NCBI RefSeq assembly: GCF_054482595.1
Contig: NZ_CM137008.1
Length of the DNA stretch: 64,000 nucleotides
Direction: 5' to 3' (one strand)
Position 1 is the first letter of the stretch, and each line of letters opens with the position of its first letter. Positions 4,104 to 37,654 of the stretch are shown piece after piece. The translations under genes and the position numbers were made by a program. The notes beneath the pieces were generated by a model, which was given only the letters and a program-made list of their open reading frames with translations, did no database searches and was not told where the DNA came from.

Positions 4104-5093
4104 TTAGCCGCCAATGTACGATAAGTTTTGCGTAATACCGGTGTTGTTTTGATGCAGGAAATGGGTCTGTTTCTTCTCCCGCAGCGCCGCTGAAATACGC
4201 GCTTCCAGCACCTGTTGCTGGGTATCGTCTTCCAGCAGATCGCGCAGGTTAACGCCGCCTTCACCAAACAGGCAGAGATGGAGTTTACCAATGGAGGAAA
4301 CGCGCAGACGGTTGCAAGTGGCGCAGAAGTCTTTTTCATACGGCATGATAAGGCCAATCTCTCCGGCGTAATCCGGATGACAAAAGACTTGCGCGGGACC
4401 GTCGCTGCGTTGACGTAATTGGTGGATCCAGCCGCGACGCAGTAGCTCGTCACGCAGAACCTGACCAGAGATGTGATGCTTACGGAAGAGCTCGCTGCCC
4501 TCGCCCGTTTCCATCAGTTCGATGAAACGCAGCTGGATAGGGCGATGCTGGATCCAGTTCAGAAAGGTGTCGAGCTGGTGATGATTAACATCACGCATCA
4601 GCACGGTATTGACTTTGACCTTCTCAAAACCGGCCTCAAATGCAGCATCAATCCCTGCCATGACCTGGTTGAATTTATCCTGCCCGGTAATAGCGTGAAA
4701 CTGGCGGGCGTCCAGACTATCAACGCTGACGTTGATGCCAGTAAGTCCAGCATCGCGCCAGTTCGCCACATCGCGTTCCAGACGGTAACCATTGGTGGTG
4801 ACCGCTATCTGGCGAATAGCGTCGTTTTCTCGCACAGCGGCGATGATATCGGTAAAGTCGCGGCGTAAAGACGGCTCACCGCCTGTCAGGCGCACTTTTT
4901 CGGTGCCCAGACTGGCGAAGGCGCGCGTAACCCGGCGAATTTCATCGACGGTCAGAAAGCCTTTATTGGTGACGCCGCTCGGTTTGTAGCCATCCGGCAG
5001 GCAGTAGGTGCAACGAAAGTTACACACATCGGTAATCGACAGGCGCAAGTAGTAAAACTTACGCGCAAATGCATCAGTCAGTTGTGAAGCCAT
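4104..5093 (-). CDS. moaA: GTP 3',8-cyclase MoaA, radical SAM (329 aa)
   Basis: ORF trimmed to MASQLTDAF...; CNFRCTYC radical-SAM cysteine motif near N-terminus; 329 aa. Confidence 0.92.
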
Positions 5094-5240
5094 GTACACC
5101 TTTCCAGATACGGGAGGCGAAGTCATTTCTTCCTTCGCCCTGGTGGCAATCTTTACGAGCATTGTCACGGCCAAAGCACCATATCAGTTGACCCAGGTGC
5201 AGAGGCTAGAGTGTTTAGTGGTTAAGCCGATACTAGCGTG
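5094..5240 (-). ncRNA. moaA 5' leader, expected location of the Moco riboswitch
   Basis: Long untranslated leader upstream of moaA; the riboswitch is placed by established knowledge of the E. coli moaA leader, its conserved fold was not verified here. Confidence 0.35.
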
Positions 5241-6588: not shown

Positions 6589-8610
6589 TCACGAAGCCGC
6601 GATAAACAATTCACGCAGCTGATGCAACTGGTCACGAATTTGTGCCGCTTCTTCGAACTCCAGATTCTGCGCGTGTTGCATCATTAACCCTTCCAGCTCA
6701 TGGATTTTCTGTTGCAACGCTTTAGGCGACATATCCATCGGCACATTATCCGGCTCAACAATCGGTCGCGATTTTCCTCTGCCCTTCGCTTTGGTTTTAG
6801 CAATGTTCTGCCCCAACGCCAGGATATCGACCACTTTCTTGTTCAAGCCTTGCGGCGTAATGCCGTGTTCCTCGTTGTACTTCTGCTGTTTCTCGCGGCG
6901 ACGTTCGGTTTCGCCAATCGCTTTCGCCATTGATGGGGTGATCTTATCGCCGTAGAGAATCGCTTTACCGTTAACGTTACGTGCCGCACGACCAATGGTC
7001 TGGATCAACGAACGTTCGGAACGCAGGAAGCCTTCTTTGTCAGCGTCGAGGATCGCCACCAGCGAAACCTCCGGCATATCCAGACCTTCGCGCAGTAAGT
7101 TGATCCCCACCAGCACGTCGAACTCACCCAGACGCAAGTCGCGGATAATCTCCATACGTTCGACGGTGTCGATATCCGAGTGAAGATAACGCACGCGCTC
7201 GCCATGTTCTTCGAGATATTCGGTGAGATCTTCCGCCATCCGCTTGGTGAGTGTGGTGACCAGTACGCGTTCGTTAATTGCCGCTCGCTGACGAATCTCC
7301 GAAAGAAGATCATCAACCTGTGTCGCCACTGGCCGCACTTCGATAATCGGATCAAGCAATCCGGTTGGACGCACCACCTGATCCACCACATCGCCGCCGG
7401 ATTTTTCCAGCTCATAATTACCTGGCGTCGCCGAAACATAGATGGTTTGCGGCGCTAATGCTTCGAACTCTTCAAATTTCAGCGGACGGTTATCCAGCGC
7501 TGATGGCAGGCGGAAGCCGTACTCCACCAGTGTCTCTTTACGCGCCCGGTCACCGCGATACATGCCGCCAATTTGTGGAATGGTGACGTGAGATTCATCG
7601 ACCACCAGCAGCCCATCGGCAGGCAGGTAATCAAACAGCGTCGGCGGTGGCTCACCCGGTCCACGACCAGAGAGGAAGCGCGAGTAGTTTTCAATCCCCG
7701 AACAGTAGCCCAGCTCGTTCATCATCTCCAGATCAAACTGGGTACGCTGGGTCAGCCGCTGCTCTTCCAGCAGTTTGTTGTTTTCCAACAGCACTTTGCG
7801 TCTGGCGGCCAGCTCTTCTTTGATCTCCTCCATCGCCTGTACGATGCGCTCGCGCGGTGTGACGTAGTGCGTTTTCGGGTAGATGGTAAAACGTGGAATA
7901 GTGGAAACAATCTGCCCGGTCAGCGGGTCAAATAACGACAATCGTTCCACTTCCTCGTCAAACAGTTCCACGCGAAGTGCAATGTCATCCGATTCTGCCG
8001 GGAATATATCAATCACCTCGCCACGAACGCGGAAAGTACCGCGCTGGAATGCCTGATCATTACGAGCGTATTGCAGCTCCGCCAGTCGGCGCAGAATCGC
8101 GCGCTGATCGATAATCATACCGACCGTGAGATGGAGCATCATCTTGAGATATAAATCAGGATCGCCCAGACCATAAATCGCGGAAACAGACGCGACCACA
8201 ACCACATCACGCCGCTCCAGCATCGCTTTGGTGGCGGACAAACGCATCTGTTCGATATGTTCGTTTACCGAGGCATCTTTCTCAATGAAGGTGTCGGAAC
8301 TCGGTACATAGGCTTCTGGCTGATAGTAGTCGTAGTAGGAGACGAAATATTCCACCGCGTTTTCCGGGAAGAACTCTTTCATTTCGCCATACAGCTGGGC
8401 CGCCAGCGTTTTGTTGGGCGCAAGTACCATGGTAGGGCGCTGAAGGTCAGCAATGACATTGGCAATGGTGAAGGTTTTCCCGGAACCAGTCACACCAAGT
8501 AACGTCTGGTGCGCCAGGCCATCTTCCAGCCCCTCTTCGAGACGTCGAATCGCCTCTGGCTGATCGCCAGAAGGTTTAAAAGCGGAATTCAGTTTGAACG
8601 GTTTACTCAT
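6589..8610 (-). CDS. uvrB: Excinuclease ABC subunit B UvrB (673 aa)
   Basis: 673-aa ORF; Walker A GVTGSGKT; helicase motifs; C-terminal UvrC-interaction region. Confidence 0.95.
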
Positions 8611-32136: not shown

Positions 32137-33636
32137 TTAAGTTCTCCGTGCGATGGGCCTGATTGGGGCTGGTATCTTTTTCTCTTTTGGTTTTTTGATG
32201 TCGCGCATCATTTTGGCGAAGCGGCGCATCATGTATGCATAGCGAACAGCTGAGAGAACGTCGTCGTTAAGCTTGACGATTTTCCCGTTTTCATCACGGT
32301 GATAGAGGCGGAACTCCTCAAAGAATGGCTCACAGGTGTTGAATACTTTGAAGCGACCGTCGAGCATCATGTCTCGCAATTCAGTGATGCCAGGCTCAAC
32401 AGCATTACCGCCATCAGGCCATGTCGCATGCTCCTGCAACATCATAAATCCAGCGTCTGCATACTGCCCTTTGAGCTGCTCACCGCCGCCCTTCTCGTGC
32501 TGGTTTCCGTCATGAGGCCATGCTGTTGGCACTTTATGCGCCCATGATTTAACCGCTCCCCATGCCTGAACGGCTGTTTTTTCTTTCGCCTTCCACACGC
32601 GTGAAACGTAGATTGTGTCTGCGTCCTTATCCCACCAAATCTGAACCTGCGCCTGCGGGTGATCCCATCCGAAATCCATCCCGCCAATTACGTAGAAGTG
32701 ATCAGGACACTCGAACGGCTGACACTTAATCGTCTCTTCCGGTATCTGGAAGATTCGACCACTACCCATCGTAGGAATACCGCGAGCACGCGCCTCTCTC
32801 TCATGCTCAGGATAGGATGCGATGATTTGCTCTTTCTGCTCGTCGGTATAGTGCTCAGCGTCATAGATGGTCATGTTGACCACTTTCTGCGACTTGCTGG
32901 GATTCTTCAGGAACTTGGTAACAACGTCAGACATCCCCATCAGCGGGGTAAATGTCAGAATTGAGAATTGCCCGTATTTGTTGGTACGGGTAAGACCTTC
33001 GCCATAAATGCTGTATGGTGGCTCTTCGTCAAACCACACGCCGTGGATTGTGTCACCCTGCCAGCGAGCACGGCCTTGCGAGTATGGCTTGAAGTAGCAG
33101 ATTGAAATGCCATCTTCAACGCCATCAGCCGTGTGATGCTTAACCAGAAGATGATCAACAAGGTTCGGAAAGAAAGGAGACTTCTTCCAGCTAATGATGT
33201 CTTCTTTCGGTATGGAACCGTAGCCAGGCTCATCATTCTCTTCGATACGACCGCACAGGATGCGTTGAGTCGTTTTGGTTACAGTCTCGTTTGTCTCTCC
33301 ACCAATCCAGAAGACAACAGGCTCATAGAAACGCTTACCTTTCCACTCACCGCCATATTTACCATCAGCAGGATAGCCTTTTGTGCCCGGATAACGACCG
33401 GTAAGGTGAAACGCGACTTCAGCAGCACCAGTAAATGACTTACCAAGCTGGTTACCAGCCATAAAACATCGCTCTGGATAGTCATGCCCGGCGTCGATGA
33501 ACTCACGCTGCTTGCTGTATGGCGTAAATTCATATAGCAGGTGTGTGTTCCGGTAGTTCTCTTCTTCTTCGAGTAGCTCGAGCAACTCGATTTGCTCTTC
33601 GTCGCTCAGGTTATCAAGAATCGCGTCCAGTTCCAC
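32137..33636 (-). CDS. Terminase large subunit, P22 gp2-like (499 aa)
   Basis: 499 aa; ATPase and nuclease domains; position between terS and portal. Confidence 0.88.
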
Positions 33637-34102
33637 GGTTGAATAGCTCCTTGATACGAGAGCGCCGCTTATCGCGATCTCCCTTATCAGGTGTCACGTC
33701 TTCAACTTGCGACTGCTCTTTGAGGCCCAAATCACGGGCGATGATGTTAGCGTTGAGAAGGTCAGCGGCTGCGCCAGAGAATTTCTGGTCGTAGATGACC
33801 TGTTCTGCTCGCGTAACGACTTCAGATAAATCTTCTCGCAGGCGATATGTGCGCCATGTTTCAAGCGTCACATCAATGAACAGAGTGAGGCCGGTAATGG
33901 TCATCGCTCGCATCTTGGCGATAGGCTCTTGTATTACTTCACCCTGATACGAGAACGCCTTCATCTCCCATAGCGGGTTAGCTTCCACCCACTCGAAGTA
34001 TTCACAACAAGCAGCCCACAGCGCCTCAGGCGATTCGAATTTAGGATTTCGCCCATGACTACTGCGGGCCTCCCAAAATCGGTTGCCCTTTGGTGCTGCC
34101 AT
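33614..34102 (-). CDS. Terminase small subunit, P22 gp3-like (162 aa)
   Basis: [55 protein letters not shown]... matches P22 gp3 as recalled. Confidence 0.88.
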
Positions 34103-34181
34103 ATTGATTATTTCCCTTCTGCTTGCTTATCCCATTCATCGCGGAATTTGGATGGGTTGTCGAAACCTTGAGTTGCCATGT

Positions 34182-34424
34182 TTATGCTCCTGTAGTGAAC
34201 AGATCTAACGCTTCCTTCGATTTACGCACCGCTTCGATAGTGCGGGTCGTGATATCTGAATTAGCGCCGCCTGACTGGAAGTGAATTTTGAATAGCTCAA
34301 GCTTCAACTCGTCAGTGCCAATGAACTGAAATGCTTCTTCTGCGGCTGCGTTCTGGTTCATGACCAGTTTGTAAATCTCTAACTGGAATTTCTGTTCTTC
34401 AGTCATGGGAATAATCTCTGCCAT
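34182..34424 (-). CDS. Hypothetical protein (80 aa)
   Basis: Compact ORF upstream of terS; no recognisable motif. Confidence 0.4.
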   Translation of the reverse strand: MAEIIPMTEEQKFQLEIYKLVMNQNAAAEEAFQFIGTDELKLELFKIHFQSGGANSDITTRTIEAVRKSKEALDLFTTGA

Positions 34425-34571
34425 TGTTGGCTCCGTTTATCCGTTAAAAGGGATATCAGTTAAGTTATCCCGTGTAGGGTATAAGCCATTATCAAAGCCA
34501 CTCTGTAGGGAATGGCTTTTGTGATGGCAATAAAAAAGGCCGCCTAAGCGACCTTTCATTTTTCATCCGTT

Positions 34572-34790
34572 TTAATCATCTGGGTAATTAAGCGGCATCC
34601 AGTGTGTAACCTTGCTTGCTCCTGAATCGATGAATGCCTTGGTTCTCTGCCAGTAAGAGCCCATACATGATAGTTTGAACACGTCACCAGTATCAGTAAG
34701 AGCTATAACCTCTTTAGACCACATCCCTTCTTTGCTTTCTGGTAGCCGGTGTTCAACATTGATCCATTGGTTTCCGTTATCATCCATCAC
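34572..34790 (-). CDS. DUF551-like phage protein (72 aa)
   Basis: WINVEHRLPESKEGMWSKEVIALTDTGDVF...THWMPLNYP resembles the DUF551 domain common in enterobacterial phages. Confidence 0.5.
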   Translation of the reverse strand: MMDDNGNQWINVEHRLPESKEGMWSKEVIALTDTGDVFKLSCMGSYWQRTKAFIDSGASKVTHWMPLNYPDD

Positions 34791-35226
34791 AACCTCGTCT
34801 AGTTGTTCGTCATAGATTCAGTGGCTGGCGGTGACGATTCCGCTTTTCGGGAGCTACCCTAGCCACTGTTTTATTCTATCCGATGTCTTTCCATCAGTCC
34901 GCCACCACAAAGAATCTTTTTTGCCATAAGGCAGGAGGTTCATCTTTCAGTGGCTGCCAGTGTTATTTCCCCACCTACTGGCTTGGGTTGTTTCGCTGTA
35001 CTGCCGTAACTGGTTGCCCAGAATAAATTCCGGTTTCATTATCAAGCCCACCCGTAGATAGGCTTTGTAATGAACCGGCTCTTATCTCAACGCAGCCCCT
35101 TACCGCGCGCCAGATGCTCAATATCAAGCATCAGCAATGAGATGTTTAATCTGGATTCACTCCAGAAGTGATCACCACCCTGTCTACAGAGCCAGATGTG
35201 AAGGATGATGAGTAAAATTATCGCTA

Positions 35227-35664
35227 TCATCGAAGGCATTGCGTCCTGATGTATTCCTGCAGGTAGTCAACCTGCGCGGTTATCCTGTCGATTCCACTTC
35301 GGAGACGGTAATAATTGAGTTCAGCATCTGCTGTAAGTCTTGGGCTTTCTCCATTGCCCATGCCGCTGGCTCCGGTCGTTGACTTTGCACAGGTGGCGGC
35401 GACTTGCAGGCGCTTACGACCAGCAGAAACATCAGCACGGAGACTTTCGATAGTCGCGTTAGCATCAGCAAGCTCCTTTGTGTATCTGGCGTCAAGTTCT
35501 GCTACATCACGTTGACGCTTCTGCATGTCAGCGATTGTGGATGTGGCTTTATCACGTTGCTCTTTGTAGGCGATGGCGTTATCACGGTAATGATTAACAG
35601 CCCATGACAGGCAGACGATGATGCAGATAACCAGAGCGGAGATAATCGCGGTTACTCTGCTCAT
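35227..35664 (-). CDS. Rz: i-spanin Rz (145 aa)
   Basis: [31 protein letters not shown]... N-terminal TM plus coiled coil, lambda Rz-like. Confidence 0.88.
35280..35465 (-). CDS. Rz1: o-spanin Rz1 lipoprotein (61 aa), embedded in Rz in +1 frame
   Basis: [20 protein letters not shown] lipobox followed by Pro-rich segment; fully inside Rz. Confidence 0.8.
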
Positions 35665-36137
35665 ACCTCAATCTCTCTGACCGTTCCGCCTGCTTCTTTG
35701 AATTTTGCAATCAGGTTGTCAGCCTTATGCTCGAACTGACCATAACCAGCACCCGGCAACGAAGCCCAGATATTGCTGCAACGGTCGATTGCCTGACGGA
35801 TGTCACCGCGATCAATCATCGGTAAAGCGCCACGCTCTTTAATCTGTTGCAATGCCACAGCGTCCTGGCTTTTGGGAGAGAAGTCTTTCAGGCCAAGTTG
35901 CTTGCGGTAGGCATCCCACCAACGTGAAAGAAGCTGGTAACGTCCGGCGGCTGTTGATTTGAGCTTTGGGTTTAGCGTGACACGTTTGCGAGGGTGATCG
36001 GAGTAATCAGTGAATAGCTCTCCGCCAACAATGACGTCATAACCATGATTTCTGGTTTTCTGACGTCCGTTATCAGTTCCCTCCGACCACGCCAGCATAT
36101 CGAGGAACGCCTTACGTTGATTATTGATTTCCACCAT
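35661..36137 (-). CDS. R: Endolysin R, lambda-type lytic transglycosylase (158 aa)
   Basis: [51 protein letters not shown]... near-identical to lambda R as recalled. Confidence 0.93.
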
Positions 36138-36444
36138 CTTCTACTCCGGCTTTTTTAGCAGCGAAGCGTTTGATAAGCGAACCTATCGAGTCAGTACCGA
36201 TGTAGCCGATAAACACGCTCGTTATATAAGCGAGATTGCTACTTAGTCCGGCGAAGTCGAGAAGGTCACGAATGAACCAGGCGATAATGGCGCACATCGT
36301 TGCGTCGATTACTGTTTTTGTAAACGCACCGCCATTATATCTGCCGCGAAGGTACGCCATTGCAAACGCAAGGATTGCCCCGATGCCTTGTTCCTTTGCC
36401 GCGAGAATGGCGGCTAACAGGTCATGTTTTTCTGGCATCTTCAT
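36121..36444 (-). CDS. S: Holin S, lambda-type with dual start (107 aa)
   Basis: [64 protein letters not shown] matches lambda S105/S107. Confidence 0.93.
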
Positions 36445-36689
36445 GTCTTACCCCCAATAAGGGGATTTGCTCTATTTAATTAGGAATAAGGTCGATTACT
36501 GATAGAACAAATCCAGGCTACTGTGTTTAGTAATCAGATTTGTTCGTGACCGATATGCACGGGCAAAACGGCATGAGGTTGTTAGCGCAGCCTCTTGCCA
36601 CCCGCTTTCACGAAGGTCATGTGTAGAAGGCCGCAGCATAACTATCACTGATGAATTCAGGACAGCTAGTGGCTACGGCTCAGTTTGGG

Positions 36690-36761
36690 TTGTGGCGGCC
36701 GGAATCGAACCGGCTTCCATCGGTGCGCTGCCGATTGCAGTACGCGCGGCGGTCAGCTACA
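36690..36761 (-). ncRNA. tRNA-like remnant (intact T-arm and anticodon-arm-like hairpin; degenerate acceptor and D stems)
   Basis: minus strand GCCGG-TTCGATT-CCGGC T-arm; ATCGG-CAGCGCA-CCGAT hairpin; acceptor pairs 5 of 7; position 33 is A not U. Confidence 0.3.
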
Positions 36762-36980
36762 TGACTAGTATTTTCACTATCGCCTATCTGCTAGCTCGCC
36801 ATTGAGCTTCACCACAACGATAAGAGCACTGCGCGGCACCTTTCACCAATTCCGCGAGGTCTGCGGGTTCAATGCTCTTACCTGTTGTGCAAATAAAAAA
36901 GCCACCGTTGCAACTTAAGAGTCACTAACGGCAGCTTATGCGAATAGTGTTGCTCATTTGTTCAATGATGTCAACACGTT

Positions 36981-37469
36981 CTATGCTACATGTTTAATTT
37001 TCTCTACACGTTTCCGGTTTTTAAACGCACTATCCAGAACTGGGTAAATCATAAACAACGAAGCATTGAGGATTTCGTCAACTTCCCGGCGACAGGTTGC
37101 GAGCGATGGTTTTTGAATACGCCCGCCGCCCCGGCATAACATCTTGCGAGGTCTTGCGACACGATGATAGTAAGATGCAATGGCATGCTTGGAAGATCCA
37201 TGAGCGTAGTAGCTGAGGAGGATGCCAAAGGCTTTCTTGTCAATGCACATGACGGAATCGACGACCTGAGAAATCAACATTCCATCATCATCATTACACA
37301 TTGGCCTTGTCATAACTCTTCCCGGCTCTACGCTCTCCATGAACTTCGCTATTACGCTGCTCATGCGCTTTTCCAGGCGACCTGAATAAACCCATGCGCC
37401 CCACAGTTCAAGCCAGCCATTCAGCCACTCGTGCTGTTCTTTGGTGAGGTTTAGTTCTCTTATGCTCAT
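36981..37469 (-). CDS. Q: Late-gene antiterminator Q (162 aa, short Q21-like type)
   Basis: Position after ninH and upstream of the S holin with a 536-bp pR'/qut-type gap; Cys/His-containing translation. Confidence 0.6.
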   Translation of the reverse strand: MSIRELNLTKEQHEWLNGWLELWGAWVYSGRLEKRMSSVIAKFMESVEPGRVMTRPMCNDDDGMLISQVVDSVMCIDKKAFGILLSYYAHGSSKHAIASYYHRVARPRKMLCRGGGRIQKPSLATCRREVDEILNASLFMIYPVLDSAFKNRKRVEKIKHVA

Positions 37470-37654
37470 CGCCTTCCCCTCTTGCCCTGTTTGACCATCA
37501 GGACGCCGTTAACTATTACGTGACGCTCACCTTTGCTGTCTCGGTTGTACTTGAGCACTGTTCCTCTTGCACAGGAAAGCATCCTTGCCACTTCGGTCTG
37601 ATTGCCTCGTGTCTGGATAAGAAGCTCTGGTATCGTTTGAATTGTGGCGTTCAT
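37466..37654 (-). CDS. ninH: NinH-like protein (62 aa)
   Basis: MNATIQTIPELLIQTRGNQTEVARMLSCARGTVLKYNRDSKGERHVIVNGVLMV parallels lambda NinH (recalled). Confidence 0.75.
   Translation of the reverse strand: MNATIQTIPELLIQTRGNQTEVARMLSCARGTVLKYNRDSKGERHVIVNGVLMVKQGKRGRR

Follow-up and report, generated by a model that had tools for sequence, protein, structure and literature searches.

What lies between the lysis genes and the packaging genes of a P22-like prophage when the interval holds no long open reading frame (ORF)? The question is raised by positions 34791-35226 of a 64,000-nucleotide (nt) stretch of contig NZ_CM137008.1 (assembly GCF_054482595.1), which as a whole is referred to here as the window. 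An earlier note, made from the letters of the window alone, had described an ORF-poor interval with a long-loop hairpin, and had offered a decayed moron, a small RNA (sRNA) or a processing site as explanations. We identify the hairpin as the outer stem (P1) of an int-alpA-class RNA, and the window copy is a straightforward member of this known Rfam family. The motif forms the first part of a longer conserved leader that ends at the start codon of the next gene, which encodes a DUF551 protein. The function that we favour, with a probability of about 0.6, is that of a portable 5′ leader that would gate translation of moron genes through an anti-Shine-Dalgarno (anti-SD) loop. As a whole the interval is an unremarkable mosaic joint in a prophage of the P22 type, and holds one small gene, a conserved spacer and an RNA motif that was already known. 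All genes around it are on the minus strand, as are the leader and the other prophage features described below.

Identification and fold of the int-alpA RNA

Scanning the region against Rfam, as the earlier note had suggested, gives one above-threshold match, to the int-alpA RNA (RF02996), at 34807-34869. The match, which covers the full Rfam model (positions 1-71), scores 42.0 bits (E 3e-7 to 3e-5), above the gathering score of 35.8; the curated threshold is passed in the window and at seven of ten phage loci. The int-alpA motif comes from a comparative-genomics study (Weinberg et al., 2017; PMC5737381), and is not discussed in the main text of that paper (PMC5737381). In the literature searched we found no functional study and, besides the discovery, a mere table listing. 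It is thus one of the many orphan structured RNAs known only from bioinformatics.

The minimum free energy (MFE) fold of 34782-34872 (-29.2 kcal/mol, z = -3.25, with 0 of 200 shuffles equally stable) reproduces the three-way junction of the family. In P1, CAGUGGC (34862-34868) pairs with GCCACUG (34819-34825), as indicated by the Rfam structure, the MFE fold and covariation. Inside P1, the joining strand J1/2 (UA, 34861-34860) precedes the P2 hairpin of the Rfam structure (GGG-UAGCU-CCC, 34849-34859), which is followed by J2/3 (GAAAA, 34844-34848) and the P3 hairpin (GCGG-AAUCGUCA-CCGC, 34828-34843). The conserved joining strands of the window junction are UA, GAAAA and CA. Across 78 copies, 99% of the P2 cells and 100% of the P3 cells are paired. 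P2 is near-invariant in the subfamily of the window and variable in copies of the Rfam-consensus type, and J2/3 is nearly invariant family-wide (Rfam consensus CGAAAAG). The conserved junction nucleotides of int-alpA (C-UAG, CGAAAAG and CCUG) appear in the window as CUAG, CGAAAAG and CCAG, the last being one change from CCUG. The window therefore shares with int-alpA its sequence, its three-stem structure and its conserved junction strands. Among phages of Escherichia/Salmonella, Vibrio and Pseudomonas, these strands are nearly invariant while the helices covary.

The inverted repeat from which this work started (cagtggct/agccactg) is an exact 8-bp match, although it lies at 34819-34826/34861-34868 rather than at 34815..34862, an offset of 4-6 nt. 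Its arms are separated by 34 nt, not 32, and what had been taken for a long loop holds the hairpins P2 and P3. Such a repeat alone is not significant, as ~0.26 are expected by chance in 430 bp with loops of up to 40 nt. We consider the structure real because of the Rfam int-alpA score, the z-score of the MFE fold and the covariation of all nine stem pairs.

Several other identities were considered for this sequence and rejected. As for a self-cleaving ribozyme (hammerhead, twister, pistol or hatchet), no ribozyme family of Rfam matches at E up to 10, and the UA/GAAAA/CU strands are unlike a hammerhead core. By eye, a tRNA-like element or att remnant lacks a T-loop/D-loop signature and CCA, and a sigma-54 promoter in GTGGCTAGGGTAGCT has the wrong GG/GC spacing. 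P1 is not followed by a U-run, as an intrinsic terminator would be. An AUCUAU:AUGGAU helix of the MFE fold is unconserved in relatives.

The conserved unit extends to the start codon

The conserved unit is ~45 nt longer than the Rfam model, adding a P4 hairpin, the SD sequence with an element that we call site B, and the AUG, all of which lie outside the int-alpA model. In the window, the whole block (34782-34874) comprises the three-way junction, a linker, the SD hairpin and the start codon. The linker contains site A (UGACGA, 34807-34812). P4 (ACAAC-UAGACGAG-GUUGU, 34789-34806) carries site B (GACGA, 34795-34799) in its loop, where it overlaps the SD sequence GAGG (34793-34796). A covariance model of the unit (R1), built from 30 diverse leader copies, scores the window leader at 88.5 bits (E 2e-19) and finds it to be the sole copy in the window; related loci have one match, rarely two.

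A sensitive BLAST search with 34560-34900 recovered an 85-nt block from unrelated phages that infect Vibrio, Klebsiella, Pantoea, Edwardsiella, Enterobacter and Pseudomonas. This block is 76-87% identical to that of the window and is always intergenic, just upstream of a same-strand gene. Conservation runs from P1, or just before it, through the linker and P4 to the AUG of the next ORF, and both the flanks and the ORF bodies are unrelated. The start codon is at a fixed 74-87 nt from the core across copies, with the AUG 1-8 nt after P4. Relative to phage Sf6, the homology junction of the window is at 34882/34881, just upstream of a TAGAAT box, and phage BIS08P22 has the same leader and a different gene from the AUG on. 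Of 5426 complete E. coli genomes, 28 carry the leader ahead of DUF551 and ~20 more carry it ahead of other cargo, the homology breaking at window position 34790. Homology begins slightly upstream of the stem and ends precisely at the start codon, a pattern that speaks more for a cis-acting 5′ leader, attached to the ribosome-binding site of the gene that follows, than for a free-standing sRNA. Of the options in the earlier note, the small RNA came closest: the motif is curated in Rfam, where its type is sRNA, but in the window a cis leader is the better description.

A pattern scan of viral contigs found at least 120 loci, which reduce to 85 distinct elements, and a second scan for the Rfam-consensus type added five copies. 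Leaders precede unrelated cargo in phages and islands of E. coli, Salmonella, Klebsiella, Vibrio and Pseudomonas. The motif is named for its occurrence near integrase or alpA genes in prophage-like elements. The window copy differs in being beside neither, as it lies between lysis and packaging genes upstream of DUF551. Consensus-type copies in E. coli sit directly after int, gene context being a tendency and not a structural criterion, and the consensus-type copies, including those adjoining integrase genes in E. coli islands, have the same layout as the others. The host range of int-alpA is wider than its name implies.

A BLAST search with the Rfam consensus identified copies in E. coli islands adjoining yicC (L140-L142). 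In these islands the leader begins 14-30 nt after the integrase stop and directly precedes a ~300-aa (amino acid) hypothetical gene, downstream of which are genes for a helix-turn-helix regulator and Icd-like or Ant-like proteins. This gene order resembles that of satellites or phage-inducible chromosomal islands, and recalls the c4-icd-ant operon of phage P1.

The leaders are followed by 65 distinct, mutually unrelated proteins from more than 20 unrelated Pfam families. These include HNH and other homing endonucleases, DUF1376/primosomal-like proteins, VapE/primase-helicases, an integrase and an aminotransferase. Also encoded are DUF551 proteins (three, that of the window included), antirepressor-like proteins (Ant/Bro/KilA-N/P63C) and many small proteins without known function. 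Tight control would make sense for several of these kinds of cargo, namely the homing endonucleases, the antirepressor-like proteins, the primase/VapE proteins and the integrase.

The leaders also explain an annotation problem, as gene callers leave these stretches of ~90 nt blank or run hypothetical ORFs across them. For example, a deposited ‘hypothetical protein’ coding sequence of Pseudomonas phage IME307 (L005:2027-2590) crosses the leader, and its annotated start is probably wrong because the conserved AUG is ~85 nt inside. In Enterobacter phage Tyrion (L011, 2211-2585, minus strand), a 125-aa frame after the leader joins a Klebsiella-type 58-aa protein to a DUF551 domain. Only the DUF551 part is annotated in the deposited record, and the longer frame suggests either a cargo fusion or a missed start.

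Covariation of the P3 loop with two sites downstream

The loop of P3 (L3, 34832-34839), our proposed anti-SD element, is hypervariable, yet in almost every variant it is complementary to two downstream sites. Site A is 0-14 nt after P1, and site B is ~10-18 nt further on, in the loop of the 5-bp P4 hairpin, overlapping the SD sequence. The sequences of L3, site A and site B are UCGUCA, UGACGA and GACGA-GG in the window, and CCUCA, UGAGG and GAGGU in Pseudomonas phages. Other variants have CUCUCCGCG, CGCGGAGAG and CGCGGAGG (L062), CCUUCAC, GUGAAGG and UGAAGGG (L017), and GCCUUA, UAAGGC and AAGGU (the E. coli island L140).

Perfect L3 complements of at least 5 nt occur at least once within 60 nt after P1 for 27 of the 32 distinct L3 sequences, and at least twice for 21 of the 32. 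Cross-paired or shuffled controls average 9.8 and 2.3-2.6, respectively, with maxima of 18 and 8 in 500 trials. These counts are conservative because the automatic parser, which allowed no mismatches in P1 and over-extended P3, failed on 11 of 84 elements. A MAFFT alignment made without reference to any structure gives a covariation score of 0.33-0.34, compared with 0.139 for shuffles (0 of 500 reaching the observed value) and at most 0.133 for slid partners.

Helix covariation was counted in a covariance-model alignment of the 78 copies, the model containing no long-range pairs. Changes on both sides were found for five of five L3:site B pairs (87% of cells paired, counting the four core pairs) and for five of six L3:site A pairs (66% paired). 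The corresponding values are nine of nine for P1 (85% paired) and five of five for P4 (89% paired). One L3:site B pair, for instance, is GC in 39 copies, CG in 17, UA in five and AU in two. Mean duplex energies over 26 L3 classes, determined with a sliding window, are -8.9 kcal/mol for site A and -8.4 kcal/mol for site B, making the two pairings nearly isoenergetic. At the level of comparative sequence analysis, the four helices, both long-range complementarities and the fixed place before the start codon are established.

The 3′ tail of the Rfam model, and likewise the 3′ end of the window match, ends in the site A element. As the model ends exactly there, the discoverers of int-alpA may have noticed the L3:site A pseudoknot, a kind of feature that cmscan output cannot display. 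Two further ideas about these elements were rejected. Loop-loop kissing between L3 and the loop of P2 is not indicated, as the two do not covary, and a mini-ORF overlapping site A (AUG-ACG-AAC-AAC-UAG) is unconserved, relatives having CUG or UUG, or other frames.

Two contigs carry two leaders each: L080 at 614-707 and 1409-1507, and L078 at 2083-2184 and 7516-7606. The L3/site sequences of these co-resident leaders differ (e.g., UCGUCA/UGACGA vs CGUAGA/UCUACG), and the copies therefore appear to be mutually orthogonal. All four carry TGnTATAAT-type boxes.

A candidate translational gate and its alternatives

We infer that pairing of L3 with site B in the P4 loop would hide the ribosome-binding site and hold translation of the cargo down, and that site A would act as a look-alike decoy in the linker that competes for L3. 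The leader would be able to sit in an off state (L3:site B) or in an on state. The nearest characterised parallel to this logic is found in the immunity RNAs CI of phage P4 and C4 of phages P1 and P7; the loop of P4 CI is likewise complementary to two sites, of which one overlaps an SD sequence. As conservation spans P1 to the AUG while the cargo genes differ, the block would also function as a portable expression cassette, and would provide the homology patch at which cargo genes are swapped. This gives an orphan motif a specific and testable hypothetical function, that of a portable, self-addressed gate on the translation of phage morons. As regards the window alone, the result is modest and ordinary.

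A number of observations weigh against such a gate. The L3:site B duplex of the window has only 5 bp and reaches the GA of GAGG but not the whole SD sequence, and P4 is a weak stem. The site A duplex is stronger than that of site B in 17 of the 26 L3 classes. Were site A also to pair first as the RNA is made, L3:site B might seldom form in cis, in which case the leader would be constitutively on or dependent on a trans partner. The promoter-like box of the window is weak (no TG, poor -35) and was not called by the promoter scan, and the predicted +1 (~34867/34866) falls 1-2 nt inside P1. Rfam classes int-alpA as an sRNA gene and not as a cis-regulator, a difference from what the window indicates. 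In addition, the near invariance of the junction strands hints that they bind a factor or ligand, which has no place in the gate model.

The main rival owes its standing to the resemblance of the leader to the CI RNA of phage P4 and the C4 RNA of phages P1 and P7 (RF01695; c4-a1b1 RF03163; clan CL00128). On this account the junction is excised (e.g., by RNase P or RNase E) as a stable ~60-nt antisense RNA that acts mainly in trans on sites A and B. The outcome would be negative feedback or an immunity-like block on the cargo, possibly involving Rho-dependent polarity. RNase P processing and trans action are known for both C4 and CI. Full repression of the ant genes that lie downstream depends on C4 (PMC8198154). 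As in the Rfam C4 model, the leader has an outer stem around two hairpins, the second with a large loop. Also shared is a loop complementary to two targets in its own transcription unit, one of which overlaps the ribosome-binding site of the next gene. In P4 CI the loop CCUGUGAA is complementary to UUCACAGG, which occurs twice, the second time within CACAGGAGG-N9-AUG. One of these targets is upstream and the other 35 nt downstream, where it overlaps AGGAGG 9 nt before the AUG. The hypervariable L3/site pairs that differ between co-resident leaders are as expected of specificity determinants, int-alpA is typed as sRNA by Rfam, and site A could hold the cis L3, leaving site B free for a trans copy.

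On the other side, the leader shows no sequence similarity to these RNAs. The C4 model finds no match in 34000-37500 even at E up to 10, and the same model scores 74.9 bits on P4; because of this lack of a match, int-alpA does not count as a member of the C4 family. The int-alpA RNA is also smaller, with an outer stem of 8 bp vs 17 bp, and has unpaired junction strands. Site B is in a hairpin loop, and the cargo of the window is not an immunity or antirepressor operon. Both targets are downstream on the same molecule, within 45 nt, so intramolecular pairing should dominate. Neither a terminator nor an obvious processing signal was seen after P1 in the window sequence, and there is no excess of further L3 targets in the window (23 matches vs 15.7 ± 3.9 expected). 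Overall, we regard a processed, trans-acting RNA as unlikely, although it survives better than the other alternatives.

A bolder proposal, on which we would place somewhat less weight, makes the junction a sensor, either an aptamer or a dock for a host factor, with which many unrelated phages and satellites in Gammaproteobacteria would read host state. The sensor would switch L3 between the decoy and the SD loop so that toxic cargo (homing endonucleases, antirepressors, primases) is translated only at the right moment. In a related version, the hypervariable L3/site pairs would serve as addresses in a C4-like immunity network that acts in trans between mobile elements resident together.

More narrowly, the leader could be a riboswitch or a protein-binding leader in which a small molecule, or a protein of the host or phage, is bound by the invariant junction (UAG, GAAAAG, CCUG and the closing pairs of P2). 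This would re-orient P3 and so decide between the SD loop and the decoy as the partner of L3. In riboswitches and RNA thermometers that sequester the SD sequence (e.g., the pseudoknotted SAM-II and preQ1-II), a structured 5′ domain pairs with the SD sequence and gates initiation; in such riboswitches an alternative partner sets the on and off states. The near-invariance of the junction strands in phages of such different hosts, where the helices covary, fits this idea, and the two near-isoenergetic pairings resemble an expression platform. P2 and P3 are very short for an aptamer, however, and the anti-SD element of int-alpA is a hypervariable hairpin loop, not part of a conserved aptamer. An aptamer would be tied to one pathway or transport function, but the 65 cargo proteins are functionally unrelated and offer no metabolic theme that hints at a ligand. 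There is no known ligand or consistent gene function, and no candidate factor can be named. We consider a riboswitch or protein-binding leader distinctly improbable.

Very unlikely, in our view, is a constitutive stabiliser or insulator, in which the structured 5′ domain would block 5′-end-dependent decay and present the SD sequence in a hairpin loop, with L3 contacts that only compact the fold and involve no switching. E. coli mRNAs can be stabilised by 5′-terminal stem-loops, copies with a strong TGnTATAAT have their predicted +1 at the first nucleotide of P1, and the cassette travels with many different cargos. This explanation does not account for the match of L3 to the SD loop itself, which is the best-supported pairing, or for the upkeep of two target copies.

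A decayed-gene remnant, a terminator or a processing hairpin in the late transcript is almost certainly wrong: the interval does lack long ORFs, and relatives have extra genes (rha, a GIY-YIG nuclease) at the equivalent place, but P1 is part of an RNA whose family shows covariation and which is attached to an intact gene, no U-run follows P1, and the adjacent spacer is non-coding in Sf6 and BIS08P22, with no part aligning to rha.

Cargo gene, promoter and terminator

The cargo of the window leader is a 71-aa DUF551 protein (34572-34787/34790, AUG at 34785-34787; Pfam E 9.4e-10), labelled ‘DUF551 domain-containing protein’ in E. coli RefSeq records. After its stop, folding identifies an intrinsic terminator at 34528-34557, a 10-bp G+C-rich hairpin followed by a U-run (-18.3 kcal/mol, z -3.1). 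Upstream of the leader is a -10-like hexamer, TAGAAT (34873-34878), with no TG extension and a weak -35. The promoter/terminator scan missed both this box and the terminator.

Across the family, 25 of 68 distinct upstream contexts have a strong -10-like hexamer (at least five of six matches) that starts 16-18 nt ahead of the UAGGG core; such a hexamer occurs almost nowhere else. Allowing four of six matches raises the number to 30 of the 68, nine of which have TGnTATAAT, and in the clearest copies the predicted +1 coincides with the first base of P1. A conserved -35 element is lacking. As TAGAAT lacks the TG, any promoter of its own in the window is predicted to be weak. During lytic growth, the Q-modified late transcript would read through the leader region anyway.

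With its -10-like box, leader, DUF551 ORF and terminator, the predicted cassette has the classic layout of a moron. The terminator and the insertion junctions are clear, and the promoter is represented only by the weak TAGAAT box at the -10 position of the family. Where the earlier note considered a decayed moron, the putative moron is intact. Lambdoid morons and the PeSL (promoter/stem-loop) cassettes of T4-type phages are self-contained units of promoter, gene and terminator between conserved genes, in which variable genes have a short conserved regulatory flank that can mediate their shuffling. The unit described here differs in that its conserved part goes beyond a promoter and a hairpin, being a 95-nt structured, covarying RNA that ends exactly at the start codon.

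The upstream part of the interval

The interval contains no ORF of 60 aa or more, the longest that overlaps it being 50 aa. The description as ORF-poor holds in that sense, but the interval is not empty, as about one third is coding. This ORF (35087-35239) starts inside the end of Rz and matches phrog_11822 over its full length (E 4e-38). Its homologues are annotated as gene 65 in Sf6 and gp67 in epsilon34. The family has no assigned function, and the N-terminus of the window member is hydrophobic. Its position directly after the spanin genes suggests a lysis-associated membrane peptide.

Between this gene and the leader is a non-coding spacer of ~200 bp (34881-35086), which alignments show to be present in Sf6-like phages as well. 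Its hairpin-proximal 130 bp (~34881-35012) are 96-98% identical in Sf6, Sf101 and BIS08P22, whatever the upstream gene. The spacer is non-coding DNA in Sf6 and BIS08P22; in Sf101 a whole rha gene is inserted into it, with the 130 bp kept 3′ of the insert. No part of the window spacer aligns with rha, and in the relatives compared there is no frameshifted gene that would account for the interval, so the comparison proposed earlier as a way to detect a lost gene gives a negative answer. The 34881-35012 segment contains small hairpins (CCAGU...ACUGG and UGCCUUAUGGCA), and looks like a lambdoid ‘boundary sequence’ or a 3′ untranslated region.

Genomic setting

Judging from megablast matches against phage records (Sf6, epsilon34, CUS-3, Sf101 and other Lederbergvirus, i.e., P22-like, genomes) and from E. 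coli chromosomes that are 100% identical to the window, the locus is the late region of a P22/Sf6-like E. coli prophage. Upstream are genes for the Q antiterminator (36981-37469), holin (36121-36444), endolysin (35661-36137) and Rz, with Rz1 embedded (35227-35664). Downstream of the DUF551 gene are a DUF2560 ORF (34182-34424) and the small (TerS, 33614-34102) and large (TerL, 32137-33636) terminase genes. The location originally described for the interval, between the lysis cassette and the DUF551/terminase genes, is confirmed.

In Sf6, genes for tRNA-Asn and tRNA-Thr are present between Q and holin. ARAGORN finds no tRNA in the corresponding part of the window (36400-37000, minus strand), where a weak match to a transfer-messenger RNA-like Rfam model at 36687-36745 (20 bits vs a gathering score of 47) is possibly a tRNA remnant. 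Also identified, in host DNA well outside the late region of the prophage, is a molybdenum cofactor riboswitch (RF01055, 104.5 bits) at 5081-5225 on the minus strand.

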